From a virus: 64,000 nucleotides of DNA. The notes beneath the pieces were generated by a model. That model saw only the letters and a program-made list of their open reading frames with translations, had not been told where the DNA came from and ran no database searches. Numbering within the stretch: position 1 is the first letter of the stretch; every line of letters starts with the position of its first letter. The stretch covers positions 1-64,000 of the IMG/VR virus record IMGVR_UViG_3300009388_000001. One strand, written 5' to 3'. This document shows positions 2,849 to 24,024 of this stretch, one piece after another. The position numbers were made by a program, and so were the translations under genes.

Positions 2849-2851
2849 GTT

Positions 2852-7159: not shown

Positions 7160-7569
7160 TGTCAACCACTACCAGTTCAACTACGACTACGACTACGACA
7201 ACTACGACTATTGATTACGATCTTGTAACTGTATGGCCGAACATCACTGAACCGGAATATCCGATTAAAGAATCAACATACCTTCCTTCGCATCATATCG
7301 AAAAAGAAGGTCCTTATGTTCAGGTTCGCAAAAAGTGGACAGCCGGGAAAAAAGAATGGACTCTTGAATGGACAGAAAAAGTTCCGTTGCCGGAATCGGA
7401 TTATCAAATCATTGAAGCATTCTTCCTTGCAAAACAGGGCAGCGCATTTACATGGATTCATTATTCAACAGGTATTTCATATACGGTAATGTTTGATCAG
7501 GATGAACTGGAAGATAACATTATTGTTCCCGGATACAGAACTTTAACTATTAAATTACAGGAAATATAA
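7159..7569 (+). CDS. distal tail protein (lambda gpM position) with N-terminal poly-Thr tract
   Basis: The ATG at 7159 overlaps the tape-measure stop as TAATG. The product is 136 aa and starts MSTTTSSTTTTTTTTTTIDYD. Confidence 0.5.
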   Translation: MSTTTSSTTTTTTTTTTIDYDLVTVWPNITEPEYPIKESTYLPSHHIEKEGPYVQVRKKWTAGKKEWTLEWTEKVPLPESDYQIIEAFFLAKQGSAFTWIHYSTGISYTVMFDQDELEDNIIVPGYRTLTIKLQEI

Positions 7570-8234: not shown

Positions 8235-8661
8235 ACTTTTCACAAGCAAATACGAACGCAATTCAAAGACTCAGGGAACTCACGACTGTAAAAGTCTGTT
8301 TGTGGAAGTAATGAATCATTATGGCAATAATATTAAAGTTTCCGATATTGAAATAATGGCTATTGAACAGGTTGTTGCCATGAAAGCCAGAGACGAATAT
8401 CCATACACTGAAATTGACGCAAAGATTATTGAAAAAGAACTGGCGAGCGGAAGATGGCTTCCTTTATCAGAACCGGAAGTTGGATGCGCTGTAGTTATGG
8501 CGCTAGATCCTATGCATCCTGATTTAGTGCAGCATCTTGGCGTATATATCGGAGAAGGCAAGTTTATTCATATTCTTGAAGATATGGGAGTTATAGTAAG
8601 TCGTATTAATGACAGATTTTTTAATCGCAAAATAAAAGGGTTTTGGAAATGGAATCCTTAA
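8194..8661 (+). CDS. NlpC/P60-family tail peptidase (lambda gpK C-terminal-like)
   Basis: It has a catalytic-Cys context (THDCKSL) and downstream His residues (MHPDLVQHLGVYIG). The start is uncertain: ATG 8194 or GTG 8215. It sits in the gpK position. Confidence 0.55.
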   Translation: MRQELDKVDSILLKLFTSKYERNSKTQGTHDCKSLFVEVMNHYGNNIKVSDIEIMAIEQVVAMKARDEYPYTEIDAKIIEKELASGRWLPLSEPEVGCAVVMALDPMHPDLVQHLGVYIGEGKFIHILEDMGVIVSRINDRFFNRKIKGFWKWNP

Positions 8662-11600
8662 TACAGAAAGAAAATATTCATCTTACAAATATTCTAAATC
8701 CGTTTGATCCACGCGGTAGCCGCGAATTCAAAGAAATGCCACGTGGCCTGTCTTTAAAAGAATGTATTGATCTGAACAGGGATCCATTAACCGATTGTTA
8801 TAGTATATCGGCAGCAATAAATGGAGAACTTGTACCGGAAAATGCCGATTATTCCTTAATCTATCCGCATGGCAATGTTGTCATATGTGTTACTCCTCAA
8901 GGTGGTGGCAAGAAAAATACATTACGGCTTATATTGCAGCTTGCAGTTGTTGTTATTGCAGCCGCAGCCACATGGTATCTTGGCGGGGCTGGCGGATATC
9001 TTGTGGGAGCGGGATTTGCGTTAAATACAGCAAATGCAATAGCCATAGGCGCAGGTATGGCAGTCTCAGTTATTGGCAACACATTAATCAGCGCCCTTAT
9101 TCCATACGACATGGGCGATGCTAATGATTCTGAAGTATCTCAAACATATTCATGGGATGCATCAAACAACTCCAACCGCGAAGGTGTTGTCTGGCCTGTT
9201 CTTTATGGAACAACAAGAATTAAACCACCTATAATCGGCAAATATATTGAGATTGTTAATAATAAACAATACCTTAATATATTATATGCTATTGCTGATC
9301 ATGCCATTGATTCGTTTAACGAAACAAGTGTTTTGTTGAATGACAACCCGGTTGCTAAGGATTCCTATGATATTACATGGGAATATCGTACTGGATCTCT
9401 TGACCAAACACCGATTTCTTTCTTTCATGATACAAGATCAACAAAGGCAATAGGCCAGAAATTTGTTGATGGACAATACATAATAATTGATGTCGATGGT
9501 ACGCAAGTAGAGGCAATCGGTGTCGCTATTTCTTGTCCAATGGGAATATATATAGTCAATGATGATGGCAATAATGAAGCTCATGGCATTGATATTGAAA
9601 TAGAATATAAAGAAATCAATGATTCAACATGGGTACGCGCACAGCGTTACACAAGTTCAGAAACAACAATATCAACTGCGCGTTGGTCGGCAGGATTTGA
9701 AATTGGAGGTTCCTGGTATGAATATGAAGTTGGTTCGACCAATTCATCAGATCATATAGAGGGAGATTCTTATAATCCAACTATTTGGTTGTACAGTACT
9801 CGCCAAAGTCGTTTAATAAATAAATGGCACTGGGTTTCTGCCGGAACCAAAATAAACATAATAGGTGAAATAACTTGTAATCGTTATAATATTACTACAT
9901 GTACCAATAAAGCAATTCGTCGCGTTGTTTATATCGATAACCTTCCACCTGGGCAATATCAGGTAAGATTGCGTTGGTATAATGGTAATTTTCAAGCATC
10001 AAACGCAAGATTAATGATTGATACATACATTGATTATATCGAAGCAATCATATATGACCAATTTTCTTTTCCAGGTTCATCAGTATTCGGTTTGCGTGCT
10101 TTGGCAACTGATAAATTTTCGGGCAGCATACCATCATTTTCAATTATTGCCACACGATCAACCGTTCCGGTTTGGGCAGGTGCGGCATATGAAAATCTTC
10201 CAGCCAATAATCCGGCATGGGCATCATATGATATTTTACATGATTCCTTCTATGGTGGTGGTGTTCCTTATTCCAGAATTATTTACGAAGACTTTCTGGC
10301 ATGGGCCAACAATAATGACCTGCATTATATTTCTGATGGCGTTCCTTCGGCAGTACAATTCCGGTGCAATATTTATTTAGATTCTTCATCAAGCCTAAGA
10401 AAAGTCCTAAATACTTTCGGGCAGCTTGGCCGCGGGAATACTATTCAAATGGGTAGCAAATTCACCTGTTTTGTCGATAAACTGGAAACACTTCCAGCTC
10501 AAAGTTTCATATTTAACATGGCCAACATCAAGGCAAAGAGTTTCAATGTCGAATATATGGATATTGAAAACCGTGCCAATGCTGTTAATGTTACTTTTTG
10601 GGATAAAGAAAATAAGTACAAACAACGCACAATTGAAATTCATGCTTCGGACTTTGACTCCGCTACACAAGAGATCAAAAAAACACAACTTTCATTAAAA
10701 GGTTGCACATCTTTGGCGGAAGCGATCGCTCACGGCAACTTTGCGCTAAACTGCAATCGCTTGCTCATACGTACAGGAAATTGGGAGGCCGATATCGATG
10801 CAATCGGTTGTATGCCATGGGATGTTGTGGAAGCACAACATGATGTAACCATGTGGGGTGAAGGTGGACTGATTGTATCAGCTACATTCAGTCAAGTTAC
10901 ATTAGATAAGGAAATCACGTTATCTCCTGGTGTTGCTTACACAATCAAATTTCAATCAGCTGCAGATGACATAATAAAAGAATATACGTTAAATAATGTA
11001 GATTCTGAAGTCACAACTTCAACTGTATCAATAACCGATATATTCGATCCGCTTCCGGTAAGACACGATAAATGGATTATTACATCAATAGGATGTGCAA
11101 CAAAGTATTTTCGGCTTCTTAGAACAAGTCGCCTTAGTGACTTAACCAGAAAATTAATCTGCTTGGAGTACAATGCCAGTATCTATGATGATACAAAACC
11201 TGTGTCTGAACCAGCAACTATACCAACAATAACATACGAAGCCCATCTTCGTGCGCAGGAGGTCCAGCTATGGAATGGCAGTCCTGATACTGTCATTCAC
11301 TTATCCTGGACCGGATTCGCCATGATTTGGTATGTATTCTATAAAAGTTATGATGATGATGAATATACTTATATAGGAAGTACAAATAATCCATTTTTTA
11401 AAATCGAAGGCTTGCAACCTCGTAACGAGGCATATACTTTTTGTGTCAGCCATACCCGCCATGCCAATGACGGTATATCTACGACACTTGTTGTAGCCGG
11501 AATTGGCATTATCGCCGTACCTCAAGTACCTCTCAATTTTACAGCAACATTAATTGATAGAGTAATAAAGTTATCATGGGATGCGCCGACAGATATTACA

Positions 11601-13106
11601 GTTACCGGATATTCCATTTACTTGAATGATTCATTAAAGGCAACAAATATATCAGGAACTTCATATACTTACTCTGAAGTACTCACTGTCGGCACGTATA
11701 ATTTTACACTGGCAGCGCTGACGGTAGGCGGCGAAAGTGAGCAAACCGAAGTGGCTGGTATTACAATTACCGTACCATCAACGCCTGTTCCCACAGCCAC
11801 AGCAGTTAATGAACAATGTATCGTGACATGGGGAGACTGTAAAACATCCCTGCCCATTGCTTTTTATAAAGTAAATACTGTTAATATCGGATCCGCGCTC
11901 AGATACATGGAACGCATCAACTGGATAGGCGAAAGAACGTATACGGTGGTTGCTGTAGATATTGCCGGTAATGAAAGTGCTGAAGGATCGACATCTATAA
12001 CAACAAACGCAATAACAACCGGCACTGACATAACTACCACAGGTCTAACCTATGCCATACATCTTGTTTTGACTTATGCAGAGTTTACCGGTTTTAACTA
12101 TGTAGAAATATGGGCAGCAGAAACAAATAACCGGGCAACGGCAATAAATGTTGGAACTACAAAAACAGCAGCGTGGACACATAATGGCCTTGATCTTGTT
12201 GACAAACGTTATTATTGGATACGCCTTTGTGATATTTATGGAAACACAGGCAATTGGTATCCGTCATCCGCAACCGCAGGCATAGAAGGCAATACATCCA
12301 CAAGCCCAGATGATTATATATTGATTCTTCAGGGATACGAAAATCTCAACCAGATTGCCGGTTCTAATTTCCTTATTGAAGGTATTATTGACGGTCACAA
12401 TGTAGTTGGTGTCACGGGTGACCTAATTATTGATGGTTCGGTTATCGCGGAAAAGCTTGCATCCGGAATTATATATTCAAAACAAATAACTCTTGGTGTC
12501 TCTGATGGCAACGGTGACGCATATATTGCAGCAGGGAAAACTGATTTTAATAATACCCAGGCTGGTTTTATTCTTGGCATTGATGATTCAGACTCAAATA
12601 AGGCAAAATTATTTATTGGAAATGAATCAAATTACTTAAATTGGGATGGAAGTGCATTAACAATTCGAGGCGCCTTGAATGCTTCTGATATTACTTCCGG
12701 AACATTAAATGTTGATAGAATAAGTAGTGGCAGCATTTCTGTCCCGGTGACTGCATTTACAAGTGGTTCAACAAAATTATCATCCGGAACAATTACCTTG
12801 CAATCCGCCGAAATTACAACAATTGGCTCTGTTGTTTTTATTATATTTTCTTGTATTGGAAACAGTGACGGATCGATAGCGAATCCGGCAACACACGATA
12901 TAAAAATTTATCGTGATAGCACACTGATAAAAGAATATGAAGATATGGCATGGATATACAGTGATCACTATCACACACATGCTTTTAGTTTTTCAGATAC
13001 CCCAGCTGCAGGAACATATATTTATTACGCAAAAGCAACTTATGTATCTGGAAGTGCCGGTAATTTTAGCAATAGATCTTTGTTTTTGTTGGAATTAAGA
13101 AAATAA
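8649..13106 (+). CDS. central tail fibre / host-specificity protein (gpJ-like) with gpI-like N-terminal region
   Basis: About 1485 aa. The N-terminal 170 aa or so end in a Gly/Ala-rich hydrophobic segment (VVVIAAAATWYLGGAGGYLVGAGFAL), as in lambda gpI. The rest is J-like, with FN3-like repeats (LNFTATLI..LSWDAP). Confidence 0.75.
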   Translation: MESLIQKENIHLTNILNPFDPRGSREFKEMPRGLSLKECIDLNRDPLTDCYSISAAINGELVPENADYSLIYPHGNVVICVTPQGGGKKNTLRLILQLAVVVIAAAATWYLGGAGGYLVGAGFALNTANAIAIGAGMAVSVIGNTLISALIPYDMGDANDSEVSQTYSWDASNNSNREGVVWPVLYGTTRIKPPIIGKYIEIVNNKQYLNILYAIADHAIDSFNETSVLLNDNPVAKDSYDITWEYRTGSLDQTPISFFHDTRSTKAIGQKFVDGQYIIIDVDGTQVEAIGVAISCPMGIYIVNDDGNNEAHGIDIEIEYKEINDSTWVRAQRYTSSETTISTARWSAGFEIGGSWYEYEVGSTNSSDHIEGDSYNPTIWLYSTRQSRLINKWHWVSAGTKINIIGEITCNRYNITTCTNKAIRRVVYIDNLPPGQYQVRLRWYNGNFQASNARLMIDTYIDYIEAIIYDQFSFPGSSVFGLRALATDKFSGSIPSFSIIATRSTVPVWAGAAYENLPANNPAWASYDILHDSFYGGGVPYSRIIYEDFLAWANNNDLHYISDGVPSAVQFRCNIYLDSSSSLRKVLNTFGQLGRGNTIQMGSKFTCFVDKLETLPAQSFIFNMANIKAKSFNVEYMDIENRANAVNVTFWDKENKYKQRTIEIHASDFDSATQEIKKTQLSLKGCTSLAEAIAHGNFALNCNRLLIRTGNWEADIDAIGCMPWDVVEAQHDVTMWGEGGLIVSATFSQVTLDKEITLSPGVAYTIKFQSAADDIIKEYTLNNVDSEVTTSTVSITDIFDPLPVRHDKWIITSIGCATKYFRLLRTSRLSDLTRKLICLEYNASIYDDTKPVSEPATIPTITYEAHLRAQEVQLWNGSPDTVIHLSWTGFAMIWYVFYKSYDDDEYTYIGSTNNPFFKIEGLQPRNEAYTFCVSHTRHANDGISTTLVVAGIGIIAVPQVPLNFTATLIDRVIKLSWDAPTDITVTGYSIYLNDSLKATNISGTSYTYSEVLTVGTYNFTLAALTVGGESEQTEVAGITITVPSTPVPTATAVNEQCIVTWGDCKTSLPIAFYKVNTVNIGSALRYMERINWIGERTYTVVAVDIAGNESAEGSTSITTNAITTGTDITTTGLTYAIHLVLTYAEFTGFNYVEIWAAETNNRATAINVGTTKTAAWTHNGLDLVDKRYYWIRLCDIYGNTGNWYPSSATAGIEGNTSTSPDDYILILQGYENLNQIAGSNFLIEGIIDGHNVVGVTGDLIIDGSVIAEKLASGIIYSKQITLGVSDGNGDAYIAAGKTDFNNTQAGFILGIDDSDSNKAKLFIGNESNYLNWDGSALTIRGALNASDITSGTLNVDRISSGSISVPVTAFTSGSTKLSSGTITLQSAEITTIGSVVFIIFSCIGNSDGSIANPATHDIKIYRDSTLIKEYEDMAWIYSDHYHTHAFSFSDTPAAGTYIYYAKATYVSGSAGNFSNRSLFLLELRK

Positions 13107-13121
13107 AAAAAGGAATGGCTG

Positions 13122-13310
13122 ATGATAAAAACAATTGAAGAAATCACGCAGGAAAAAACTCTGGCTGAAATTATCGTGGCACGCGACAAAATGATTATTG
13201 TTTTGCATACACAAATGATGGAATTTCAGGAAAAAAACAACATGTTGACAAAACAACTTGAGGAAAAAAACAAGATTATCGAAAATCTTTTAAAAGAGAC
13301 GAAGCAATAA
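13122..13310 (+). CDS. hypothetical coiled-coil protein
   Basis: 62 aa ORF co-directional with the late genes, with AAGGAA upstream. Confidence 0.4.
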   Translation: MIKTIEEITQEKTLAEIIVARDKMIIVLHTQMMEFQEKNNMLTKQLEEKNKIIENLLKETKQ

Positions 13311-13338
13311 AAAATAAACTTGCAGGAGGTAACAAACA

Positions 13339-13614
13339 TTGGAACTTTTTACAAAAGAAGACCTCGAGAAAATTGTCGGAGATGCAGTTACAGATTCAAT
13401 GAAACGGGAATTTAAAAGTTTCTATATCCCACCTGAAAAACACTATAAGCAACATGAATTCATCGAAAAACTCATGGATATTTGCGACGATTGGAACAAG
13501 ACGAAACGGAATGTTATTTCGCGATGTATCTTGTATTTTATTGTCGGTTTATTGTTTCTTGGATTCTTAACATGGGGCATTAAAACATTCAATGTTCCTC
13601 AAATCAAAGGATAA
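13339..13614 (+). CDS. putative holin / membrane protein
   Basis: TTG start 9 nt after AGGAGG. There is a single C-terminal TM segment (ILYFIVGLLFLGFLTWGI). It lies directly upstream of the endolysin. Confidence 0.4.
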   Translation: MELFTKEDLEKIVGDAVTDSMKREFKSFYIPPEKHYKQHEFIEKLMDICDDWNKTKRNVISRCILYFIVGLLFLGFLTWGIKTFNVPQIKG

Positions 13615-13618
13615 AATC

Positions 13619-14053
13619 ATGCGGGAAAATTTCAACAAGGGACTGGATATTGTACTGGGACTGGAAAGTCGAACAACAACTAATGATCCTAAAGATCCTG
13701 GTGGTCTTACTGTGTGGGGACTATCTAAAAAATACAATCCGGAAGTTTATGACGGCATGCCGGAATCAGAAATAGAAGAACTTTATTATCGTAAATACTG
13801 GAAAGCGTCCGGCTGCGATGAAGCACCATTCCCTCTTGATATTTGCTTATTTGACGGCGCGGTAAATCCACAGGACGACAAGAAATTGCCCGGCGCCGGA
13901 AACAAGGAAATTCTTTTGCAGAAACCGAATGACTGGAAAGATTTTCTCTTTTTACGAATGGTACGTTACATGAAAAATTCTCAACGTGTTTATGTGCTCG
14001 GCCATATTCAACGCATCATTAAATTATACGAACAGATTTTGTCATTGAATTAA
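13619..14053 (+). CDS. endolysin, GH108-type lysozyme
   Basis: The motif LGLESRTTTNDPKDPGGLTVWGLS matches the GH108 EGG..NDP.DPGG.T..G signature. The ATG at 13619 follows the upstream stop. Confidence 0.7.
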   Translation: MRENFNKGLDIVLGLESRTTTNDPKDPGGLTVWGLSKKYNPEVYDGMPESEIEELYYRKYWKASGCDEAPFPLDICLFDGAVNPQDDKKLPGAGNKEILLQKPNDWKDFLFLRMVRYMKNSQRVYVLGHIQRIIKLYEQILSLN

Positions 14054-14061
14054 CTATCCCC

Positions 14062-14130
14062 TGCACGGACTGCCCCTCCGTGCATCTCGCCGCAGTGATC
14101 CGGTACTCTCCGCCGGGTCACTGTTTCTTA
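14062..14130 (+). terminator. two hairpins closing the late structural/lysis operon
   Basis: The first hairpin is TGCACGGA/TCCGTGCA (14062-14084). The second is GTGATCCGG/CCGGGTCAC (14095-14121) and is followed by TGTTTCTT. Confidence 0.4.
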
Positions 14131-14144
14131 GTCAATAAAAATAC

Positions 14145-14172
14145 TTGCACAATAAAAATTCTATGTTATAAA
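14145..14172 (+). promoter_or_regulatory. sigma70-like promoter candidate for the glycosylation island
   Basis: TTGCAC, 16 nt spacer, TATAAA, in the 250-nt gap upstream of the first glycosyltransferase gene. Confidence 0.3.
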
Positions 14173-14306
14173 GTGCAACTTATAAAACTTAGATAACTTA
14201 TAAATACAAGGAGGTGTCGCCATGAAATAACAAACATAAACAAAAGTAATTGCAGTTACTTGACCCTAAACTCTAAAACTTAATACTTCGCATAAGGAGG
14301 CAGCCT

Positions 14307-15593
14307 ATGGCGAAAATTGCTATTCTCACTACTTTCATGAAGTTCGATCCCTGGTATTCGCTAACAGGAATCGTCAAAGATCAGGTCAGAATGCTCACCG
14401 AATACGGAAACGAAGTTTTCCTGTTCGTTAATGAAAGATTCAATGATTCTGAAAATCAGTTTAACATTTCGAATTGTACCCTTCTTAAAAAAATACCTTT
14501 TGCCCATTTAAAAGATTATCAAAGCGGCCAACCGCTTTCCGAAGATCACGAAAAAACAGCCAGAGCAACGTGCGATATACTTGTTGAAACTATCAAAGAA
14601 CTGGAAATCGACACGGTCTTTACGCATGACTTCGTTTTTACCGGCTGGAATAAACCGTACGCCATCGGATTGCAATACATTCAAGATAAATTGCAAAAAG
14701 TTATCTGGCTGCACTGGATTCACAGCATACCTACCCAATTTTCCGATTGGTGGGATATGGCCTCTTATGGTCCGGGTCACAAACTTGTATATCCCAATGC
14801 GACAGATAAAATCCGTGTAGCGGAAAGTTACCGCACAAACACATCATCGGTTCGTATCATTCCGCACATCAAAGATCTGCGTGTCATGTTTAATTTTGAT
14901 GAAGCGACCTGCGAATTGATTGATAATTACCCTGCCATGATGTCGTCAGATATTATACAGATATATCCTGCTTCATCCGACCGCTTCGAAGCCAAACGTG
15001 TTTCTGAAGTTATCAGAATCATGGCCTACATCAAATCCATGGGTCATTCTGTTTGCCTTTTTATTGCAAACCAATGGGCAACGACACAAAAACATTACGC
15101 AAATCTGATGGATTATTACGAGATAGGAAAAAAATACGGTCTCGAACCCGGCAAGGATCTAATCTTTTCATCATTGTTTGAACGTAACGGTAAACAACCG
15201 TACAAAGTCGGCGTTCCTGCAAATATCCTTACCCAGTTAATGATGCTTTCTAACTTATTTGTCTTTCCGACACGCGAAGAAACATTCGGCCTTGTTCTTC
15301 CGGAAGTAGCGCTGGCATCCGGCGCTTTGTGCGTACTGAACCGTTCGTTGCACATGCAAGCAGAAGTGTCCGGCGGCAATACATTATTCTTTGATTTCGG
15401 ATCATATACGCATGATCATCATTGCAATGATCAAGACGACTATTTAAAGCAGGTAGCCATAGTGATCCTTGGCCGGATGAATGAAAACGACGGTATCATG
15501 ACGCGAACATTCATGCGCAAGAAATACAATTACGATAATCTCTACTCCAAATATTACGCTCCTGTCATGGCAGAAACGAGGATATATGTATGA
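14307..15593 (+). CDS. GT-B fold glycosyltransferase (GT1/GT4-like)
   Basis: EX7E-type motif FPTREETFGLVLPEVALASG. Strong AAGGAGGCAGCC upstream. Confidence 0.75.
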   Translation: MAKIAILTTFMKFDPWYSLTGIVKDQVRMLTEYGNEVFLFVNERFNDSENQFNISNCTLLKKIPFAHLKDYQSGQPLSEDHEKTARATCDILVETIKELEIDTVFTHDFVFTGWNKPYAIGLQYIQDKLQKVIWLHWIHSIPTQFSDWWDMASYGPGHKLVYPNATDKIRVAESYRTNTSSVRIIPHIKDLRVMFNFDEATCELIDNYPAMMSSDIIQIYPASSDRFEAKRVSEVIRIMAYIKSMGHSVCLFIANQWATTQKHYANLMDYYEIGKKYGLEPGKDLIFSSLFERNGKQPYKVGVPANILTQLMMLSNLFVFPTREETFGLVLPEVALASGALCVLNRSLHMQAEVSGGNTLFFDFGSYTHDHHCNDQDDYLKQVAIVILGRMNENDGIMTRTFMRKKYNYDNLYSKYYAPVMAETRIYV

Positions 15594-16738
15594 GACGACT
15601 TGTATATCTTTACGTATCGAACGGTTCTGCCGCGCCGGATAAAATTCCAAAATGGTCGCCGGAAATACAATCCAGAGATCCTTTTGCCGCACATTTTAAT
15701 GAAGAAGGGTTCTGTTATTTATTCAAGGAATTTATCAAAAAAAACTTATTTGATGAAATTCTTGTAATAATTGAATCTAACCGATCACCGGGATCCTTTG
15801 TCATCTCCAAAAACATCAACGGACTTGTCGTGCCTCATGTTGAATGTCTTTGGCCGTTTTTGCGTCCTGACGATATCATGTGGGCGCGCGGCGGTTGGCG
15901 GTCATGGTGGGCATTTTTGAATCAATGGCACGAAATGGATAGATGGTTGCTGTTTTACCGTGCCGCTTCGAATCGCGGAGCATGGACATTCTGGGACATT
16001 GTTCTCGATGATCTCATTGAGCAATGCGATCAAGATAGTATCGGCCGATTTTATTATCCGATCCGCAAACCGATCAATCCTGAACTTTTTTATTTCATGC
16101 CGAATGTTCAACGCGAATACGACCTGATGATCGGAGCGTCCCATGTTCATGATAAAAAGGGACAATTCAAAATCCTTCCCATACTGTTGGAATACAGAAA
16201 ACAATTCAGCAGACACGATCTGAAATGTATTATGCCCGGCAGTTTATCTCATGGAATCGGAACATCGCATATCACCGAAATGATAAACTGCTATGATCTG
16301 GATATCAGACTGACCGGAATGATCCCGCGCAATGAACTTTGCGAATTGTATAATCAATCAAAGCTTTTCGTACATTGTGGCGTTGCCGGCCAGAATGACC
16401 GCGGCCCGTTGGAAGCAATGGCCTGTGGAACGCCTATCACCTTATCGAATGAGCAATTCCATAGTCCGGCAATCAGGAGCGATCATACTGTATTTTCGTT
16501 TCATTTCGATGTCGATAATCCGGCGCAGGCGGCAAAGCAAATCGATTTTGCCTTGCGTGCTTCTTCCATATTCCCTTCTTTTAATGAAGGAACACGTGAT
16601 TATTTTGATGTTACGCATGGCATCGAAGCAATCTATCCGCAATACGCAGCCTTATTTAACCGAATTTTTCAAACTCCACACAAGGAACGCCAGAAGTGGT
16701 TCGATCTGCTTCTGGGAAAGGAAATATCATGGCACTAA
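15590..16738 (+). CDS. GT-B fold glycosyltransferase
   Basis: C-terminal motif LFVHCGVAGQNDRGPLEAMACGTPI. ATGA overlap with the upstream gene. Confidence 0.6.
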   Translation: MRRLVYLYVSNGSAAPDKIPKWSPEIQSRDPFAAHFNEEGFCYLFKEFIKKNLFDEILVIIESNRSPGSFVISKNINGLVVPHVECLWPFLRPDDIMWARGGWRSWWAFLNQWHEMDRWLLFYRAASNRGAWTFWDIVLDDLIEQCDQDSIGRFYYPIRKPINPELFYFMPNVQREYDLMIGASHVHDKKGQFKILPILLEYRKQFSRHDLKCIMPGSLSHGIGTSHITEMINCYDLDIRLTGMIPRNELCELYNQSKLFVHCGVAGQNDRGPLEAMACGTPITLSNEQFHSPAIRSDHTVFSFHFDVDNPAQAAKQIDFALRASSIFPSFNEGTRDYFDVTHGIEAIYPQYAALFNRIFQTPHKERQKWFDLLLGKEISWH

Positions 16739-17334
16739 AACATCCGATCATGACTAAAACAGCTTTAAGGGATTACGAAATAGGAGATTACACATATGGC
16801 GTACCAAAAATTATCGGAAAAGGAAGTCTTACAATTGGTAAATTTACCTCAATTGCCGATGATGTCACCATTCTTTTCAATGTCGAACATCGGCACGATT
16901 GGACGACAACTTACCCCTTTTCCGCACTTTTCGCCGACGCCCAACACATCGCAGGACACCCTCGAGATAAAGGACCTATCATTATCGGAAATGACGTATG
17001 GATTGGTCATAAAGTTACCATCATGTCAGGAGTTACGATTGGCAATGGCGCGGTTATCGGAGCAAATGCGGTTGTTGCAAGAGATGTCGATGCTTATTCT
17101 GTGGTTGCCGGAAACCCCGCCGTCCATAAAAAATTCCGATTCGATGAATCGTGGTGTGACTATTTACAGCGGAAGTTAAAATGGTGGGAGTTTCCGCTGG
17201 ATAATATTCTCGCCCATATCGAAGATATTCTCAAGCCTCCCGGCGAACATCTTTTTGGTCTGCGCAAAACAATTGAGGAAGAAATAGAAGCGGAAAGGAA
17301 AAGAAAGGAGGCTGAGCAGAATGAAGAGTCTTGA
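16729..17334 (+). CDS. hexapeptide-repeat acetyltransferase (left-handed beta-helix, Vat/CatB-like)
   Basis: Hexapeptide repeats IGNDVWIGHKVTIMSGVTIGNGAVIGANAVV. The ATG at 16729 overlaps the upstream stop. Confidence 0.75.
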   Translation: MALKHPIMTKTALRDYEIGDYTYGVPKIIGKGSLTIGKFTSIADDVTILFNVEHRHDWTTTYPFSALFADAQHIAGHPRDKGPIIIGNDVWIGHKVTIMSGVTIGNGAVIGANAVVARDVDAYSVVAGNPAVHKKFRFDESWCDYLQRKLKWWEFPLDNILAHIEDILKPPGEHLFGLRKTIEEEIEAERKRKEAEQNEES

Positions 17335-17905
17335 AATTACTTATCCGGAAAGATTCTTTGCAAGAAGATCTGGCATTGCCTGGCGCTCGGAAGTGTTGTG
17401 TCCGGTCATCATGGATATTCTGCAGCCAAAAAGCGTTATCGATGTCGGCTGCGCGATCGGAGATTTTGTTAAATGGTTCAATGACCACAAAATCGATTCT
17501 GTCGGCATTGAAGGTTCCCAGGGCGCGCGGAAATATGCCATGACCGATAAAATCATCTATCATGACCTACGCATTCCGATTCTTTCGCCTGTTAAAGTTG
17601 ACCTGGCCATGTCCATCGAGGTTGCCGAACACATTGAACCGGAATACGCGGAAATCTACGTTAAAAACCTGACTATGATGTCCAATAATCTGCTTCTGAC
17701 AATCGCCGGTCCCGAACAGAAAGGACATTCTCATGTCAACCTGCAACCAATAGAATACTGGGATGACCTTTTCTTCAAGTTCAATTTTAGTCGACGAAAA
17801 ATAATCGAATCAAAATTCAAAGGCGCATTGCATCTGCATCGGGCAAACAGATGGGTCAATGCGATCACTAATAATCTTTGTTTTTATCAAGGAGGCAGCC
17901 AATGA
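17321..17905 (+). CDS. class I SAM-dependent methyltransferase
   Basis: Motif I VIDVGCAIGDF, and later LLLTIAGPE. Confidence 0.7.
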   Translation: MKSLEITYPERFFARRSGIAWRSEVLCPVIMDILQPKSVIDVGCAIGDFVKWFNDHKIDSVGIEGSQGARKYAMTDKIIYHDLRIPILSPVKVDLAMSIEVAEHIEPEYAEIYVKNLTMMSNNLLLTIAGPEQKGHSHVNLQPIEYWDDLFFKFNFSRRKIIESKFKGALHLHRANRWVNAITNNLCFYQGGSQ

Positions 17906-18468
17906 AAACACCAGCAGAATATAGGGAAATGGAATTTATCGAATTATTTATTGCTCTGGCCAGATTATTCAAACCGAAAGTCTATGTCGAGCTTGGCACA
18001 AAGAAAGGTTACACGCTAAGGCGCATGGCTGATTATGTCGAAAAAGCAATCGGCATCGATTTTAATCATCTGAATCTCGGCATCAACAATGTAACGCATA
18101 TACAAAGTACAACACTTGAGTATGCCGAATCTTTAAAAGGCCGTGAACCTTTTATAGATATGCTTTTCATCGATGCCGATCATTCTTCGTTGCATGCTAT
18201 GAACGATGTTATCGCATACTTGCCTTATGTCAAAAACGGTACCGGTCTGATTCTCATGCATGACACTCACCCGATCATACCGGAATTGCTTGCTGATGGA
18301 TATTGCCATGATGCATGGCGCGCAGCTGACGATCTTTGGCATCTAACAAGTGCAATTTATCTGGAAATCGTCACGCTGCCCGGACCATGGGCCGGACTTT
18401 CCATTCTGCGAAAACGCGGAGATCATCATTTATCCTGGAAATCTCAGGAGGTCATGAATGAACTATAA
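17902..18468 (+). CDS. class I methyltransferase (O-methyltransferase-like)
   Basis: Motifs VYVELGTKKGYT and MLFIDADHS. GGAGGCAGCC upstream and an ATGA overlap. Confidence 0.55.
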   Translation: MKTPAEYREMEFIELFIALARLFKPKVYVELGTKKGYTLRRMADYVEKAIGIDFNHLNLGINNVTHIQSTTLEYAESLKGREPFIDMLFIDADHSSLHAMNDVIAYLPYVKNGTGLILMHDTHPIIPELLADGYCHDAWRAADDLWHLTSAIYLEIVTLPGPWAGLSILRKRGDHHLSWKSQEVMNEL

Positions 18469-19216
18469 ATCACCGGATATTCTAATTGATATTACAATGA
18501 CTGCCGTGCGCCGTCCGGAAACAATAAAGCGAACGTTGAATTCGTTTTACCGGAATATGCTCGCGCCGATCATTGATAAATGCCGTCTTATTGTCAATAT
18601 CGATCCGATCGGTGATGACATGGCCTCGCATGATATCTGTGAAATTTTTTCAGCGTACTTTAAGCACTACATGGTTAACATGCCGACGGAATCATCATTT
18701 CCTAAAGCCTTTCAATGGACATGGCTGCGATCTGATGCACCATGGGTTTTTCATCTGGAAGATGACTGGGAACTACTCAATGAAATCCCCATCGACTTTA
18801 TGATGGCACTCATGGAAAATTTTCCGCAATTGGCTTCCTTGCGCCTGCCATTTTTTAACGCTGCAGCAACAACAATGAAAAACTGGAATCTGTTCTTCCC
18901 ATGGAACGGACATTATTTTTCTTGTCCGCCTGATCTGCGCAAGACAGCGGGATTTTGCGGCCACCCTTCCCTGCTTCGTGGCGAATTTGTGCGAAGATGC
19001 GCTCCGCTTATCGATATCCGACTCAATCCGGAAAAACAATTTCACGGCGGCAACGATCCACTGGTCAAGGAAGTTCTGCGCTGGGAATACGGTGTTTTTA
19101 GCAGCCCGAATCATCCAAAGATGATCAAGGATATCGGCATTGAATGGAGAAACGCAAACAGATTTCAGAAGAAAGGCAGCAAGGCTTTCTTTACGGAATG
19201 GGAGAAAACATCATGA
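18458..19216 (+). CDS. putative GT-A-like glycosyltransferase
   Basis: N-terminal ILIDITMTAVRRPETIKRTLNSF and an acidic HLEDDWELL motif. The call is weak. Confidence 0.35.
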   Translation: MNYKSPDILIDITMTAVRRPETIKRTLNSFYRNMLAPIIDKCRLIVNIDPIGDDMASHDICEIFSAYFKHYMVNMPTESSFPKAFQWTWLRSDAPWVFHLEDDWELLNEIPIDFMMALMENFPQLASLRLPFFNAAATTMKNWNLFFPWNGHYFSCPPDLRKTAGFCGHPSLLRGEFVRRCAPLIDIRLNPEKQFHGGNDPLVKEVLRWEYGVFSSPNHPKMIKDIGIEWRNANRFQKKGSKAFFTEWEKTS

Positions 19217-20067
19217 ATATTTTAGTTACTGGTTCAAGTGGATTTATCGGAACGCATCTTATTAAAGAACTCATGAAACGACATGCCGTAACTTGTTACG
19301 ATCTTACGAATGGCAACGATATCCGCAATCTCCATGATCTTGACAAAGCATTCGAGACCTCGCAATGCTCCACAGTCGTTCACCTAGCTGCGCGCGCGGG
19401 CGTAAGGCGTGGCAATGACTATCCGCACGAATACATGACAACCAATATTGAAGGCACATGGAATGTCGGCAAGATGTGCGAGAAGTACGGTTGCCGGCTC
19501 ATTTCGTTCAGCTCGTCATCGGTATACGGCGATGCAAAACCGCCGACCAAAGAAGATGATCCCAAAAATCCAATTTCTCTTTACGGCATGACAAAACTTA
19601 TGGGTGAACATGTCGTCAATCAATTAACTATCCCCACAGTAATTATCAGACCGTTTACTGTTTATGGAGAAAATGGCCGCGGCGACCAGGTGTTCTACAA
19701 ATGGTTGAATCAGTACAAGGCCGGGAAACCGATAACTGTATTCGGTGATGGTGACAGTTTACGCGGATATACTTACGTCAAGGATATTGTCTGGGTAATT
19801 AACAGGTTGATCGAATCAAAGTGGAATACTTTGCATGATGATTTCAACATTGGTGGCCGTGAAGTTATGACACTGAACAATATATTAAACATATTTAAAA
19901 ACAACACCCCAACCTTGAAATTCAGTCATGTGGAAAGACCGAATCATGACATCAAGGAAAATTATGCAGATATCAGCAAGGCCACTTCGAAACTAGGATT
20001 CATGCCACTTAAAAAATTCTCGGAAAATCTCACATCTATTATCAACAAGGAGCTTCATTATGCATAA
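19213..20067 (+). CDS. NAD-dependent nucleotide-sugar epimerase/dehydratase (extended SDR)
   Basis: Motifs MNILVTGSSGFIGTHL, SSSSVYG and YGMTK. ATGA overlap with the upstream gene. Confidence 0.8.
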   Translation: MNILVTGSSGFIGTHLIKELMKRHAVTCYDLTNGNDIRNLHDLDKAFETSQCSTVVHLAARAGVRRGNDYPHEYMTTNIEGTWNVGKMCEKYGCRLISFSSSSVYGDAKPPTKEDDPKNPISLYGMTKLMGEHVVNQLTIPTVIIRPFTVYGENGRGDQVFYKWLNQYKAGKPITVFGDGDSLRGYTYVKDIVWVINRLIESKWNTLHDDFNIGGREVMTLNNILNIFKNNTPTLKFSHVERPNHDIKENYADISKATSKLGFMPLKKFSENLTSIINKELHYA

Positions 20068-20911
20068 AATAGGTATCATCGGCTGTGGTTTTGTCGGTTC
20101 CGCTGTCGCTGCCGGTTTCTCACTTAAAGCGGATATCAAAATTTATGACATCAAACCAGAAAAATGCACACATTCTTTTTCTGAAGTCTGTAATCAGGAT
20201 ATTTTGTTTCTATGCCTTCCTACCCCGATGCGCAAATCAGACGGTTTGCCGGAAATGTCTTTCATTTACAATGCTGTCGCAGACATTAACAGGGAGGTCG
20301 CGCAAGTAAAAACCCTGATTCCCAAAATCGTTGTCATCAAGAGTACAGTACTTCCCGGAACAAACAAAACATTGCAGGCAAGTTATCCTTACCTCAGTTT
20401 TGTTTCCAATCCGGAATTTCTGACCGCCAGATCCGCGCGGCTTGATTTCATTAATGCCTCGCGCATTGTGCTTGGTGGCATTGATCGTAATTCAATACAC
20501 GCAGTTGCGGACCTCTATCGGACAATATGCATACACACTCCGATTTATTATTGTACATGGGAAGAAGCGGAACTGGTCAAGTACATGGCCAATTGTTTCT
20601 TTGCTCTTAAAATTTCCTATCTCAATGAAATCTACAAGATCTGTCAGATTATCGATTGTGATTACAGTTTTTTAAAAAGAATGTGGCTGGCGGATGGTCG
20701 GATCGGAAATTCGCATCATGAAGTTCCCGGGCATGACGGAGATTTCGGTTTCGGCGGCACTTGTTTTCCAAAAGACATTGCCGCTTTTGTTGAATATGCA
20801 AAATCGATCGGAGCTCCGATCGAGACACTCAATGCCGCGCACAAGGTTAACGAAAAAGTACGCAATAAAAAAGACTGGCAAATATTCGACGATATGGAGG
20901 ATAAATCATGA
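20060..20911 (+). CDS. UDP-glucose/GDP-mannose 6-dehydrogenase family protein (short form)
   Basis: Motifs IGIIGCGFVGSAV and NPEFL, and the catalytic-Cys motif GGTCFPKDI. At 283 aa it appears to lack the usual C-terminal domain. Confidence 0.7.
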   Translation: MHKIGIIGCGFVGSAVAAGFSLKADIKIYDIKPEKCTHSFSEVCNQDILFLCLPTPMRKSDGLPEMSFIYNAVADINREVAQVKTLIPKIVVIKSTVLPGTNKTLQASYPYLSFVSNPEFLTARSARLDFINASRIVLGGIDRNSIHAVADLYRTICIHTPIYYCTWEEAELVKYMANCFFALKISYLNEIYKICQIIDCDYSFLKRMWLADGRIGNSHHEVPGHDGDFGFGGTCFPKDIAAFVEYAKSIGAPIETLNAAHKVNEKVRNKKDWQIFDDMEDKS

Positions 20912-21783
20912 AATTGCTTTTTGTTTACGACAACTCAATCGGTATTCATTATCTCAAACAGGCCTTATCCTGCGTTCCGCCGGAAAAAGCGGAAATCAAG
21001 ATCATCAAGTTATCTGAATATCCGGCATTCGATGACTCGCAATTTGATGGCCTGATCTACAATACTTTCCCTGATGAAAGTCATCGGCATAAATTCCGGA
21101 AAGATCTGATCGCCGTGACTGACGAAAAATTCATAAGTTTCGCATCTAAAAAGAAATTCCTGTTGCTTGATTCCCACGATGACGGCAACAATGATGCTTT
21201 TTGCCGTTTTGGCTATCCGAAATATCCTCGAATCAAGCTTGCGCCAGGCACAAAAATGCAATCCCTGCTTAACATTGCGATTGAAGTCCCCTTTGCCGTC
21301 AATGTGCAATTCATGAATACCACGAAGCAAAAAAGCGTACCGCTGGTTTACTGCGCAAAACTCGACGGATACGAAACCGATATCCGGAAAAAAGTATTCG
21401 ACGCGATTGCACCGTTCAACCCATTTATCAGCCGTCTTGATCTTTACGCTTATGCCGACGTATTGACTAAAGCAAAAATCGTTGTCGTTGCGCCCGGATG
21501 GGGCGAGGTTTGCTTAGCGCATTACGAAGCGCTGGCGGCCGGCGCCATGCTCTTCGCGCACGAATCCGTACGCAACTACAAATTGTTTCCTTTTGCCGAT
21601 CTGATAGAAGACAAACACTACGTCCTCTATAACCTTGAAAACATCACAGAAAAATTGACTGATCTCATGGCCAATTCGTTCAAAGTAGCCAGGATTTCCA
21701 AAGCAGGAAGCAAGGCGTTTTACAAAGGATACAATCTCAGCAAAACAGCCGAACAGATTATCGATTTCTTTAGTGAGAGGTGA
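20908..21783 (+). CDS. putative glycosyltransferase (GT-B C-terminal-like)
   Basis: Motif VVVAPGWGEVCLAHYEALAAGAMLFAHE. The call is weak and rests mainly on context. Confidence 0.3.
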   Translation: MKLLFVYDNSIGIHYLKQALSCVPPEKAEIKIIKLSEYPAFDDSQFDGLIYNTFPDESHRHKFRKDLIAVTDEKFISFASKKKFLLLDSHDDGNNDAFCRFGYPKYPRIKLAPGTKMQSLLNIAIEVPFAVNVQFMNTTKQKSVPLVYCAKLDGYETDIRKKVFDAIAPFNPFISRLDLYAYADVLTKAKIVVVAPGWGEVCLAHYEALAAGAMLFAHESVRNYKLFPFADLIEDKHYVLYNLENITEKLTDLMANSFKVARISKAGSKAFYKGYNLSKTAEQIIDFFSER

Positions 21784-21787
21784 ATTC

Positions 21788-22030
21788 ATGACTCAAGCCA
21801 TGAATTATCATAAAAACGATGAAAACACTTTAACAACAAAACTTTTAAAGGGAGCAAAATACCATATGAATATTATTGAATCTCTAAAATCTTTTTTGCA
21901 AGGATCTGAAGAAAGAGCAATGCATAAACTTCTTGCTTCTATGAAAGCACAGCAAGCAAGCAATGGTTGGTATCGGCGCTTTACCGGTAGGTCTAAAACA
22001 TTCAAAAAGAATCAAAGAAAAGGTCTGTAA
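21788..22030 (+). CDS. hypothetical small basic protein
   Basis: 80 aa ORF between glycosyltransferase genes. No motif recognised. Confidence 0.3.
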   Translation: MTQAMNYHKNDENTLTTKLLKGAKYHMNIIESLKSFLQGSEERAMHKLLASMKAQQASNGWYRRFTGRSKTFKKNQRKGL

Positions 22031-22041
22031 AGGAGTAAAAT

Positions 22042-23049
22042 ATGATATCAGGAAAACTCTCAATTATTATTCCCTTTGCTCAAGAACATCCCCAAATCGC
22101 CTTTACCGTACAATCCATATTTGCCGAACTGCATGACCGCTGCGACTTTGAAATCATTGTCATTGATAATCATTGTAATGAGTTGCAAGAACAACTGGAT
22201 AAACAGGGCAATAAACGCGACAAAGGCGGAGAATATATGAAGTCACTGGCCGGAGGTTCGCGGCCATGGCTAAAATATCTGGCCTATGACACAAAACTTT
22301 CCCACTGGCAGGCAAAGAATATGGGCGTGGCCAATTCTGATGGTGAATTTCTGTGGTTCGTCGATTCACATTGCATCCCATCACGAAACGCATTATTTGA
22401 TATGTTTTCTTATTATAGAGAGCATCACAAAGAATTGCATGGCACTCTGCATATGCCGCTTGCCTATATGCTCGAAAAACCTGGCGTCGAACTCATTTAT
22501 AAACTTGTCACTCTGCCGGAAAACGGCGTAGTGCATTACAGTTTCACACGCTACAAGCAATCCGACAAACCGTATCAAGTACCCTGCATGTCCACCTGTG
22601 GAATGATGATGTCCCGTGAGATCTATGATAAACTCGGCGGCTGGCCGGAAGAACTGGGAATTTATGGAGGCGGAGAACATTTTATCAACTTTACCCTGGC
22701 TGTTTTGGGATATTCCATTAATATTTTCCCTTCCTGGCCGCTTTACCACTATGCCGCTCCGCGCGGATATCATTGGAATTACGACGATTATCACCGCAAC
22801 CGATGCATAGCAACATTTATGTTCGGCGGCGATGCGTGGGCGTACAAATATATCATGAACATCAAACCGCACGGAGCAAAGCATGATGATTATAAAAAAG
22901 CTATTTTATCCACAATTATCGGTTCGAAGTCATGCATAAAACATCGTGAATTAATTAAAAATAGACAGGTTACGACGATTGCTTACTGGTTACAAAATCA
23001 AGCAATCATTCTCCCTGATGATTTGATTGATATGAATTATGTGGAGTAA
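22042..23049 (+). CDS. GT-A glycosyltransferase with DxH and Gal/GalNAc-T-like motifs (GT2/GT27-like)
   Basis: Motifs LSIIIPFAQE, EIIVIDNHC, FVDSHC (DxH) and YGGGEHFINFTL. Compare FLDSHCE and WGGENLEISFR in animal polypeptide GalNAc-transferases. Confidence 0.65.
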   Translation: MISGKLSIIIPFAQEHPQIAFTVQSIFAELHDRCDFEIIVIDNHCNELQEQLDKQGNKRDKGGEYMKSLAGGSRPWLKYLAYDTKLSHWQAKNMGVANSDGEFLWFVDSHCIPSRNALFDMFSYYREHHKELHGTLHMPLAYMLEKPGVELIYKLVTLPENGVVHYSFTRYKQSDKPYQVPCMSTCGMMMSREIYDKLGGWPEELGIYGGGEHFINFTLAVLGYSINIFPSWPLYHYAAPRGYHWNYDDYHRNRCIATFMFGGDAWAYKYIMNIKPHGAKHDDYKKAILSTIIGSKSCIKHRELIKNRQVTTIAYWLQNQAIILPDDLIDMNYVE

Positions 23050-23055
23050 GTAATT

Positions 23056-23712
23056 ATGCAAATAGGCGTTATTATTCCTATTATTCAAGATGTTTTCATA
23101 AATGGATTATTGAACAATATTAAAAATAACACAGTCCAACCTGCTAAAATAATTATCGTTGACAATAGCAGGAATAATATTATATTAAGCACAAAGAAAA
23201 TGCGTTCTAGCATTAAAGTCTTTAGACCAAACATTCCTCTTGGCGTAAATGCATCATGGAACTATGGCATCCATGAATTGGTACAGGATGTTGATTTAGT
23301 TTCGGTATTGAATGACGATTTGTTAATTGAAAATTATTTTTTTGAAAAGTTAACAAAATTGGTGTCGCTGCATAAGGATGCAGCCGTGTTTTGTCCGGAA
23401 ACGGTAGAAACACCGGAAATGATGTTAAAAACTCCGGCGTTGGGGCTGGAAAAACGTGATGTGATGTATAGAAGGGAGGGGTGGGCCTGGACGATCAGGT
23501 CATCGGTTGCGGTAAAAATTCCCCCTATACCTGAAAAGCTCAAGACATGGTTTGGCGACGACTGGTACTGGACACATTGCCAGAGACTAAAACAGCCGTG
23601 GATAAAGATGCTTAATAACTGGTGCTATCATTACGTTGGCCAGAGTAACAAAATTGTTAAAGCTCACAGTACGCTTAAGGCTGAGAGAGAATTGTTTAAA
23701 GCCTTGACATAA
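23056..23712 (+). CDS. GT-A (GT2-like) glycosyltransferase
   Basis: Motifs IGVIIPII, KIIIVDNS and VLNDDLLI (DxD-like). Confidence 0.55.
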   Translation: MQIGVIIPIIQDVFINGLLNNIKNNTVQPAKIIIVDNSRNNIILSTKKMRSSIKVFRPNIPLGVNASWNYGIHELVQDVDLVSVLNDDLLIENYFFEKLTKLVSLHKDAAVFCPETVETPEMMLKTPALGLEKRDVMYRREGWAWTIRSSVAVKIPPIPEKLKTWFGDDWYWTHCQRLKQPWIKMLNNWCYHYVGQSNKIVKAHSTLKAERELFKALT

Positions 23713-23787: not shown

Positions 23788-24024
23788 TCAAAAATGGGCG
23801 CTCATGGGTTTCCTGTGAGCGCCTTTGTTTTTTCTATTATATATTTGAATCCATTCTGCACGAAAAGTATCCTGTTCGATAATAGATAATTTTTGTTTTA
23901 GCCTGAACCAATTGTATGTTTTTTCGAAATTATGCCATGACGGATCGCATCCCATGGCAACGATAGCCTGCTGCTGCTCTTTGATGATTTCGTTTAATGA
24001 TTTACCTGTTTCCACTTTTGCCAT
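23788..24024 (-). CDS. hypothetical protein
   Basis: Last ORF of the minus-strand array. ATG at 24024. Confidence 0.4.
   Translation of the reverse strand: MAKVETGKSLNEIIKEQQQAIVAMGCDPSWHNFEKTYNWFRLKQKLSIIEQDTFRAEWIQIYNRKNKGAHRKPMSAHF

Follow-up and report, generated by a model that had tools for sequence, protein, structure and literature searches.

The glycosyltransferase gene and its product

We analysed a window of 64,000 nucleotides (nt), positions 1 to 64,000 of the IMG/VR virus record IMGVR_UViG_3300009388_000001, which belongs to a siphovirus-like phage with a major head protein fragment, a tail tube, a tape measure, a lambda-like minor-tail/J module and a GH108 lysin. A plus-strand cluster of sugar enzymes follows the structural genes and the lysin, and the replication genes lie on the minus strand. 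One gene of this cluster (22042-23049) encodes a glycosyltransferase (GT) of 335 amino acids (aa) with a GT-A domain that is a genuine but distant homologue of GT27, the family of UDP-GalNAc:polypeptide N-acetylgalactosaminyltransferases that initiate mucin-type O-glycosylation in animals and apicomplexans. Two tail proteins encoded in the same window carry terminal threonine-rich runs, here called poly-Thr tags. On the sequence and model evidence assembled below, we consider it plausible that this is a phage virion O-glycosylation system built on a previously undescribed GT27-like enzyme family and a portable poly-Thr acceptor tag.

The open reading frame (ORF) has an AAGGAG ribosome-binding site 6-11 nt upstream. 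All four motifs that an earlier note on this DNA had quoted from it (LSIIIPFAQE, EIIVIDNHC, WFVDSHCIP and GIYGGGEHFINFTLAVLGY) are present, and they are more than chance features, as their key residues do not vary across 35 aligned homologues with 50-77% identity; this alignment also served as the family profile in our searches. The invariant residues of this alignment are D108, H110, G209-G210-G211-E212, H236, R241 and Y243, with C111 nearly so, and the segments PCMSTCGM, W201-P202, GIYGGGE and R252-N253-R254 are invariant as well. Pfam assigns the protein to Glycos_transf_2 (PF00535; E 5.7e-12, 46.3 bits against a gathering cutoff of 23.3), as it does 35 of 35 family members; since this model takes in GT27 catalytic domains too, the assignment is not discriminating. 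In the AlphaFold2 model, which was built on the family alignment (predicted local distance difference test, pLDDT, 95.2; predicted template modelling score 0.93), the first beta strand begins at residue 2-5 and the C-terminal end forms a helical bundle (H247-323). No transmembrane segment was found in the enzyme, the maximal 19-aa hydropathy being 1.16.

Relationship to GT27 polypeptide transferases

When the family profile was compared with all PDB sequences, 16 of the 29 matched sequences proved to be GT27 (E 1e-5 to 2e-3), led by PGANT9 and TgGalNAc-T3 (E 1e-5 each) and followed by T7, T10, T4, T1, T12 and T2. The GT27 alignments cover profile positions 66-246 or 5-235 and take in DxH, PxM(S/A)xxG, GGGE(N/H) and the subsequent His and Tyr, and they reproduce every pairing of the colinear correspondence that had been drawn by eye. 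HMMER pairs viiPfvqe of the phage profile with iiivfhne of the GalNAc-transferases, eiividn with eiilvDDaS, fvDaHC with flDaHC or ylDsHC, vPCMSTCGM with sPtMaGGlf, iYGGGEN with iWGGEN, and lyHya with vGHif. In this way D108-S-H110 is aligned to the DSH or DAH of PGANT9, TgGalNAc-T3 and GalNAc-T7, and YGGGE(N/H), H236 and Y243 to the WGGEN, GH and Y of GT27. TarP ranks first in the same search, but over the N-terminal 130 residues only, and all non-GT27 matches (TarP, TarS, heparosan synthase and PcManGT) are confined to the N-terminal Rossmann half; the C-terminal half is matched by no solved relatives other than polypeptide transferases.

Fold comparison points the same way. Every one of the best 50 Foldseek matches of the AlphaFold2 model in the PDB belongs to GT27 (E 3e-16 to 6e-12, query-normalised template modelling score, TM, about 0.7, identity 14-18%), and the neighbouring small GT2 of the cluster (23056-23712), used as a control, gives no GT27 match. 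A single-sequence phmmer search against GT27 reached only E 0.13-0.27. In the viral structure library BFVD no close neighbour turned up (best E 2.6e-12, TM 0.5-0.64); several of the weaker ones, from uncultured Caudovirales, are labelled 'Glycosyltransferase, GlcNAc', a GT60-type Pfam name, and from these labels other phage GT-A families may be related to polypeptide transferases. The GT60 'GlcNAc' model itself (PF11397) has no match at E <= 1 in the window protein or in any of the 35 members, and Pfam Glyco_transf_7C matches one of the 35 members at E 0.078, exceeding its cutoff only inside the GT27-like part of a fusion protein (P0245, see below).

The 335-aa enzyme is therefore a GT27 homologue without being a bona fide member of the family, because it lacks a lectin domain (no Pfam match to the ricin-type, beta-trefoil lectin) and a membrane anchor, shares only the low identity given above and has no convincing Glyco_transf_7C match. 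Two sets of labels were dropped: those from NCBIfam (arsenosugar GT, HpsN, MftF and PglI), as all matches were below threshold, and the PHROG label 'GtrB-like O-antigen conversion', for which the match was limited to the N-terminal half.

Distribution of the family

A word-indexed homologue search retrieved 758 proteins, nearly all unnamed and metagenomic, of 300-345 aa. An exhaustive hidden Markov model search of 1.84 billion cluster representatives gave 122 matches at E <= 1e-30 and 1,585 at E <= 1e-3, so that the family is sharply bounded rather than part of a GT2 continuum. In IMG/VR there are at least 70 homologue loci (L numbers below), with 32-72% identity and 31-65% GC, on contigs of 10-277 kb. 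In the 185,579 cellular genomes that represent species, we found the gene on six contigs (L308-L313), all from metagenome-assembled genomes (MAGs); two of these were binned as archaea (Thorarchaeota and Thermoplasmatota), and all six probably stem from phages or viruses and were binned wrongly. The only tblastn match among 50,697 phage genomes was Tunturiibacter phage Tunturi_4, with 22.5% identity, which ruled out annotation by way of a cultured relative, and no mycobacteriophage homologue was found in this search. The family is thus compact and almost restricted to uncultured phages.

Some family members are fused to other domains. P0245 (740 aa) joins a paralogue with a DSH motif, a GT27-like domain and a C-terminal region that by eye resembles a methyltransferase, and P0244 (601 aa) joins a GT2 domain to a GT27-like domain. 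P0360 (L397, 1313-2584), a distant relative with 27% identity to the window protein, retains the DxH pair as DAH, reads YGGEE where the window protein has YGGGE and H..RGY where that has H....RGY, and has an N-terminal PqqD domain, the peptide-recognition element of pathways for ribosomally synthesized and post-translationally modified peptides. An OppC-like peptide permease is encoded upstream on its 3-kb contig, on which we saw no convincing precursor peptide. P0360 gives a hint of a cellular branch that acts on peptides.

Poly-Thr tags on virion proteins

The two poly-Thr tags of which the earlier note had spoken do exist in the window (Table 1). The tail tube protein ends in FDTTTSTTTTTTTTSPS, with a terminator hairpin 3' of its stop codon, and the protein in the position of lambda gpM begins MSTTTSSTTTTTTTTTTIDY; its gene lies between the tape-measure gene and the minor tail and J-like genes, the ATG overlapping the tape-measure stop as TAATG. 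Both tags are largely made of ACG/ACT hexanucleotide repeats (acgactacgactacgact), in which slipped-strand mispairing would alter tag length in frame, a possible route for the origin or length variation of tags. Codon usage inside them is mixed.

To see how often such tags accompany the family, we scored as tagged any ORF of at least 80 aa with a run of at least seven Thr/Ser residues, at least five of them Thr, within 10 kb on either side of a homologue, and as C-terminal tags those runs that end no more than three residues before the stop codon. The control was a random IMG/VR sample retrieved by an arbitrary 14-mer (117 loci, 1,037 kb). Tagged loci made up 42 of the 70 around homologues versus 3 of 117 in the random sample (Fisher p = 1.7e-19), and loci with C-terminal tags 21 of 70 versus 0 of 117 (Fisher p = 1.2e-10). 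The 72 tagged ORFs around homologues, all on the same strand as the enzyme, amount to 5.8 per 100 kb, compared to 0.29 per 100 kb in the random loci, an enrichment of about 20-fold. When the runs were masked, these ORFs fell into 38 unrelated clusters, including a tail tube, a tail protein and a family of 170-290 aa that recurs, from loci of 31-55% GC, which argues for convergence of the tags rather than shared ancestry. They look like a portable module that has been gained repeatedly, not a lineage trait. Fifteen of 38 C-terminal tags end in ...TTTTTAP, ...VP, ...SPP or ...GPPP, and C-terminal tags are also found in three of the six MAG loci. A separate scan of IMG/VR with the DNA pattern ACN x9 gave no homologue among at least 120 short loci and was uninformative.

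The gene directly adjoins Thr-rich ORFs in L016, L023, L039, L048 and L052, and in L016 proteins of 117 aa and 90 aa consisting of TTTTTVAP-type repeats flank the cassette, the repeat unit of the 117-aa protein being TTTTT(V/S/L)AP. We also observed giant mucin-like ORFs beside the enzyme gene, of 1,196-1,651 aa, with up to 74% Thr/Ser and more than 100 STTSTSTST-type runs, on phage contigs of 87-224 kb. The largest (1,651 aa, 74% Thr/Ser) occurs in L040, L041 and L070 (14978-19933). None of these giant ORFs has a PHROG match.

The putative glycosylation cluster

The features of the window, with those of three other groups of loci, are collected in Table 1, in which gene frequencies are taken from ORF clustering over the 70 IMG/VR loci and the window (71 loci).

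Table 1. Coordinates of the genes, motifs and boundary elements discussed, in the window unless another locus is named
Feature	Position	Strand	Evidence or remark	Loci (of 71)
Major tail (tube) protein, C-terminal tag TTTSTTTTTTTTSPS	1659-2228	+	phrog_807 E 2.5e-28; predicted acceptor	
DNA of the tail tube tag	2181-2219	+		
Lambda-like tail tip module	7159-13106		gpM-position protein, minor tail proteins, central tail fibre J homologue	
Minor tail protein, lambda gpM position, N-terminal tag MSTTTSSTTTTTTTTTT	7159-7569	+	Predicted acceptor	
DNA of the gpM-position tag	7162-7209	+		
Terminator-like hairpin, upstream boundary	14092-14124	+	13-pair stem	
GT4-like GT-B glycosyltransferase (partner)	14307-15593	+	428 aa; some homologues carry PF00534/PF13439	57
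Second GT-B (Glycos_transf_1, GT4)	15590-16738	+	PF00534 E 1.3e-8	36
Hexapeptide-repeat O-acetyltransferase, accessory	16696-17334	+	Pfam Hexapep E 2e-11	17
S-adenosylmethionine-methyltransferase-like protein	17321-17905	+	Methyltransf_23 E 2.2e-5, 24.7 bits against a cutoff of 27	39
Second methyltransferase	17878-18468	+	Methyltransf_24 E 5.3e-11	15
Conserved cassette protein with HLEDDWE motif	18458-19216	+	252 aa	39
NAD-dependent nucleotide-sugar epimerase/dehydratase	19144-20067	+	Pfam Epimerase E 4e-49; donor supply	10
Nucleotide-sugar 6-dehydrogenase-like protein	20060-20911	+	283 aa; UDPG_MGDP_dh and N-terminal domain; TIGR03026 E 5e-51	7
Third GT-B-like protein	20908-21783	+	Glyco_trans_1_2 E 1.4e-4, below cutoff	15
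Small ORF upstream of the GT27-like gene	21773-22030	+	80-aa gene on an independent assembly; cluster membership uncertain	
GT27-like soluble GT-A glycosyltransferase	22042-23049	+	335 aa, ATG start; sole long ORF there	
Motif LSIIIPFAQE	22057-22086	+	Residues 6-15	
Motif EIIVIDNHC	22150-22176	+	Residues 37-45	
Motif WFVDSHCIP	22354-22380	+	Residues 105-113	
DxH (D108/H110)	22363-22371	+	Invariant in the alignment	
Motif GIYGGGEHFINFTLAVLGY	22657-22713	+	Residues 206-224	
GGGE	22666-22677	+	Residues 209-212; invariant in the alignment	
H236, putative third metal ligand	22747-22749	+	Invariant in the alignment	
Small GT2 GT-A, last cluster gene	23056-23712	+	218 aa; PF00535 E 1.4e-5	22
Terminator-like hairpin with T-run, downstream boundary	23796-23824	+	13-pair stem, 8 GC pairs; strand switch	
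L358, partner and tagged tail genes	2380-7530 and 16753-17457		Tags ...TTTTTTA, ...TTTTTV, MTTTTTSAPP	
L023/L039, giant mucin-like ORFs	10975-14868 and 17058-20921			
L021, giant mucin-like ORF	17333-20923			

Transmembrane segments are missing from all 13 cluster proteins, and neither Wzx, Wzy or another flippase or polymerase nor a priming phosphoglycosyltransferase was found among them. This agrees with sugars being added step by step to a soluble acceptor in the cytoplasm and speaks against the making of a lipid-linked polysaccharide. The two terminator-like hairpins bracket the 9.4-kb cluster exactly, the second at the point of convergence with the minus-strand replication genes, so that the cluster looks like a discrete insertable unit.

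Several of its products are less clear-cut than their neighbours. In NCBIfam, the acetyltransferase is Vat/CatB/WbbJ-like and the epimerase GalE/RmlB-like, both below equivalog cutoffs. The dehydrogenase-like protein matches profile positions 67-300 of 413 and seemingly misses the C-terminal domain, which may mean a truncated, inactive or split enzyme. The conserved 252-aa protein has no match in Pfam, NCBIfam, PHROG or PDB sequences; judged by eye from its HLEDDWE motif, which recalls the DxD/EDD sites of GT-A enzymes, it may be a further GT-A or an unrecognised glycosyltransferase family. The region fused C-terminally to the GT27-like domain in P0245, methyltransferase-like by eye, may correspond to the first methyltransferase-like protein (17321-17905). 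Elsewhere in the window, the tail tip module includes a J homologue of 1,487 aa (phrog_31, E 7e-130), and there are no tRNA genes in the whole window.

Proposed mechanism and alternative explanations

With moderate confidence, we predict that the GT27-like protein is a soluble, cytoplasmic, metal-dependent GT-A enzyme at the core of a phage system that O-glycosylates poly-Thr/Ser tags of virion proteins, and that it takes the initiating step. In this scheme, D108, H110 and H236 would hold Mn2+ and the UDP-sugar, and the enzyme would act in the cytoplasm, putting the first sugar, a hexose or N-acetylhexosamine whose configuration would be retained by analogy with GT27, straight onto hydroxyl groups of Thr/Ser in the disordered tag. 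The GT4-like partner encoded at 14307-15593 and the accessory GTs would then lengthen the glycan, which the two methyltransferases and the acetyltransferase would cap. In the present phage the tail tube protein would be modified at its C-terminus and the gpM-position minor tail protein at its N-terminus, and the outcome would be a tail (in other phages also heads or fibres) covered by a mucin-like glycan brush.

The earlier note had made this enzyme the initiating transferase for the poly-Thr tags. Its link to such tags is borne out by their enrichment around homologues; the initiating role is not established by these data, with the partner present in 57 of 71 loci. The smallest recurrent unit consists of the 428-aa partner and the GT27-like enzyme (L023, L036, L039, L046 and L047, all tagged), and when loci were retrieved reciprocally with a partner profile, 54 of 80 held a GT27-like gene 1.5-10 kb downstream, those without one being mostly truncated or lying on contigs known to hold the gene farther off. 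Because this pairing is near-obligate both ways, co-occurrence cannot tell which of the two enzymes initiates.

The strongest alternative is that the tags are glycosylated but the partner adds the first sugar, as GtfA does, and the GT27-like enzyme the second or a later one. Protein O-glycosylation initiators of the GT4/GT-B type are well established, GtfA/B among them, and GtfA, a GT4 enzyme with an extra beta-sheet domain, initiates the glycosylation of Ser-rich-repeat proteins in Gram-positive bacteria. The partner's own loci are tagged in 61 of 80 cases, a link as tight as that for the GT27-like enzyme. In L358 (59% GC), tagged tail genes surround the partner gene and a GT27-like gene is missing from the 18.5 kb, so that L358 is possibly a partner-only variant of the system. 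Further points tell against the scheme proposed above: at the enzyme's distance from GT27 the acceptor type is not safely transferable; the survey loci were retrieved via the enzyme gene and cover only 10 kb on either side, and the tags of the window lie 15-20 kb away from it; and only one protein, encoded on a 3-kb contig, shows the PqqD fusion.

The fold of the partner speaks against its acting first. Its AlphaFold2 model (pLDDT 92.4) has as its best 50 Foldseek matches MshA, BshA, PimB', WaaG, trehalose-phosphate synthase and glycogen synthase, with none of GtfA, GtfB or OGT among these 50; we therefore ruled out a GtfA- or OGT-like partner, the matches being generic retaining GT4 enzymes with small-molecule or glycan acceptors. 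Partner-less cassettes also exist. The one in L016 (8179-11234), directly after a major-capsid-like gene and a dCMP deaminase and beside the small mucin-like proteins mentioned above, consists of a 284-aa GT-A paralogue with its own DSH (and no PDB sequence match), a methyltransferase and the GT27-like enzyme, and P0245 fuses the same trio, its methyltransferase part having been recognised by eye. These cassettes, the peptide-directed nature of all solved relatives that match the C-terminal half, and the occurrence of a PqqD fusion within the GT27-like family favour the GT27-like enzyme as the peptide-directed component. We accordingly lean, if only slightly, towards the GT27-like enzyme as the initiating transferase, and think a purely elongating role for it, with the partner acting first, rather unlikely.

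Far less probable is a cluster that serves as a moron and alters either a small molecule or a glycan of the host, such as O-antigen, capsule or teichoic acid, with the enzyme an ordinary polysaccharide-type GT2 and the tags unrelated to it. Such a reading could draw on the Pfam assignment to Glycos_transf_2, on the sugar-nucleotide enzymes in the cluster, and on the best PHROG ('GtrB-like O-antigen conversion') and best single PDB match (TarP, a wall teichoic acid GlcNAc-transferase), both over the N-terminal half only. GtrB-type enzymes are membrane-anchored, and the present cluster has no membrane segment, flippase, polymerase or priming transferase; the C-terminal half of the enzyme matches GT27 and not polysaccharide GT2s, the family is nearly missing from cellular genomes, and tags are enriched around homologues (p about 1e-19).

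That the runs are a lineage or compositional effect, namely unglycosylated linkers or products of (ACGACT)n slippage with some other site modified, such as a terminal Ser, we regard as highly improbable: both tags of the window are indeed built of hexanucleotide repeats, 28 of 70 loci have no tag within the surveyed 10 kb, and the Che8 capsid and tail tube proteins end in ...TGS and ...DGS with no Thr runs, but the tags sit at the termini of 38 unrelated clusters over a GC range of 31-55% and at enzyme identities down to 32%, are almost never seen in random viral loci, and use mixed codons.

Comparison with known glycosylation systems

Animal mucin-type O-glycosylation by GT27 is the closest mechanistic precedent. 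Compared to GT27 enzymes (for example, the structures of GalNAc-T2, 4D0T/2FFU; PGANT9, 6E4Q; and TgGalNAc-T3, 6S22), the phage enzyme has the same GT-A domain with DxH(C), PxM(S/A)xxG, a Gal/GalNAc-T-like motif (W/Y)GGE(N/H) and then His and Tyr in the same order, and its predicted acceptors are Thr-rich, often Pro-flanked and disordered, like the proline/threonine/serine (PTS) domains of mucins. It differs in being only 335 aa long, without ricin-type lectin domain, signal anchor or stem, and in being a cytoplasmic, bacteriophage-encoded enzyme, whereas GT27 enzymes are Golgi-lumenal. Generic GT2 enzymes (TarP/TarS, GtrB and PglI) share the N-terminal nucleotide-binding half, residues 5-132; the phage enzyme differs from these in having DxH instead of DxD, in lacking a membrane anchor, and in a C-terminal half left unmatched by them in the profile search.

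To our knowledge, virion glycosylation has been shown experimentally only in a few actinobacteriophages. The mycobacteriophage glycans are reportedly O-linked at C-termini, and Freeman et al. in 2023, the work in question, are said to have seen little sign of glycosylation across the broader phage population. By the summary in a further report, the mycobacteriophage systems comprise Che8 gp108-110, Corndog gp38 and Myrna, with Che8 gp110 and Corndog gp38 being essential, and phage-encoded glycosyltransferases, in some phages together with methyltransferases, modify capsid or tail tube subunits (PMC12363180). These mycobacteriophage systems are the closest functional precedent. The system proposed here resembles that of Che8 in its phage-encoded GTs alongside virion subunits with a terminal acceptor segment (a prediction in our case) and in the idea of a glycan-shielded virion. 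Unlike the present proteins, the Che8 capsid (...NKTGS) and tail tube (...YSDGS) have no poly-Thr tag, and the phages with the present system are uncultured, range from 31-65% GC and include some with contigs above 200 kb. We detected no homology of the enzyme to Che8 gp109 or gp110 (BLASTP E 1.2 and 0.023; hhalign probability 0.04).

The closest bacterial analogue is offered by the Ser-rich-repeat proteins (SRRPs) of Gram-positive bacteria. They are glycosylated by GtfA/GtfB and accessory GTs, and the phage cluster would resemble this pathway in the cytoplasmic, stepwise O-glycosylation of long, low-complexity Ser/Thr-rich segments by a soluble set of GT-B and GT-A enzymes, with a GT4-like partner that recalls GtfA. 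The differences are that the phage system has no accessory Sec export, that its predicted substrates are virion proteins, and that GtfA and GtfB are missing from the partner's best 50 fold matches. We know of no SRRP counterpart of the GT27-like component. In the full-text literature searched, the coverage of which is incomplete, neither a phage enzyme resembling GT27 nor glycosylation of poly-Thr tags is described.

Implications for phage virions and for GT27 evolution

The relationship of this family to GT27 bears on the long-open origin of the GT27/GT60 polypeptide transferases. A more far-reaching reading, which we put forward as tentative and on balance doubtful, is that the family is a hitherto unrecognised phage branch of the GT27/GT60 lineage running a true mucin-type pathway, with sugars placed directly on portable poly-Thr(-Pro) tags and on the giant mucin-like proteins. 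Were this true, dense Thr O-glycosylation would not have been invented by eukaryotes, their enzymes would have a candidate sister or source in the phage family, phage particles would carry a mucin-like glycan brush, and the module of a poly-Thr tag plus two enzymes would be a ready glyco-engineering tool. A small, soluble, lectin-free enzyme acting on a minimal peptide tag would be a possible tool for protein glyco-engineering in bacteria.

For the phages themselves, recurrence of the gene in at least 70 IMG/VR contigs and hundreds of metagenomic proteins suggests that glycan-coated virions are widespread. Such a coat could influence adsorption, aggregation, adherence to mucus or exopolysaccharide, resistance to proteases and grazers, and immune recognition.

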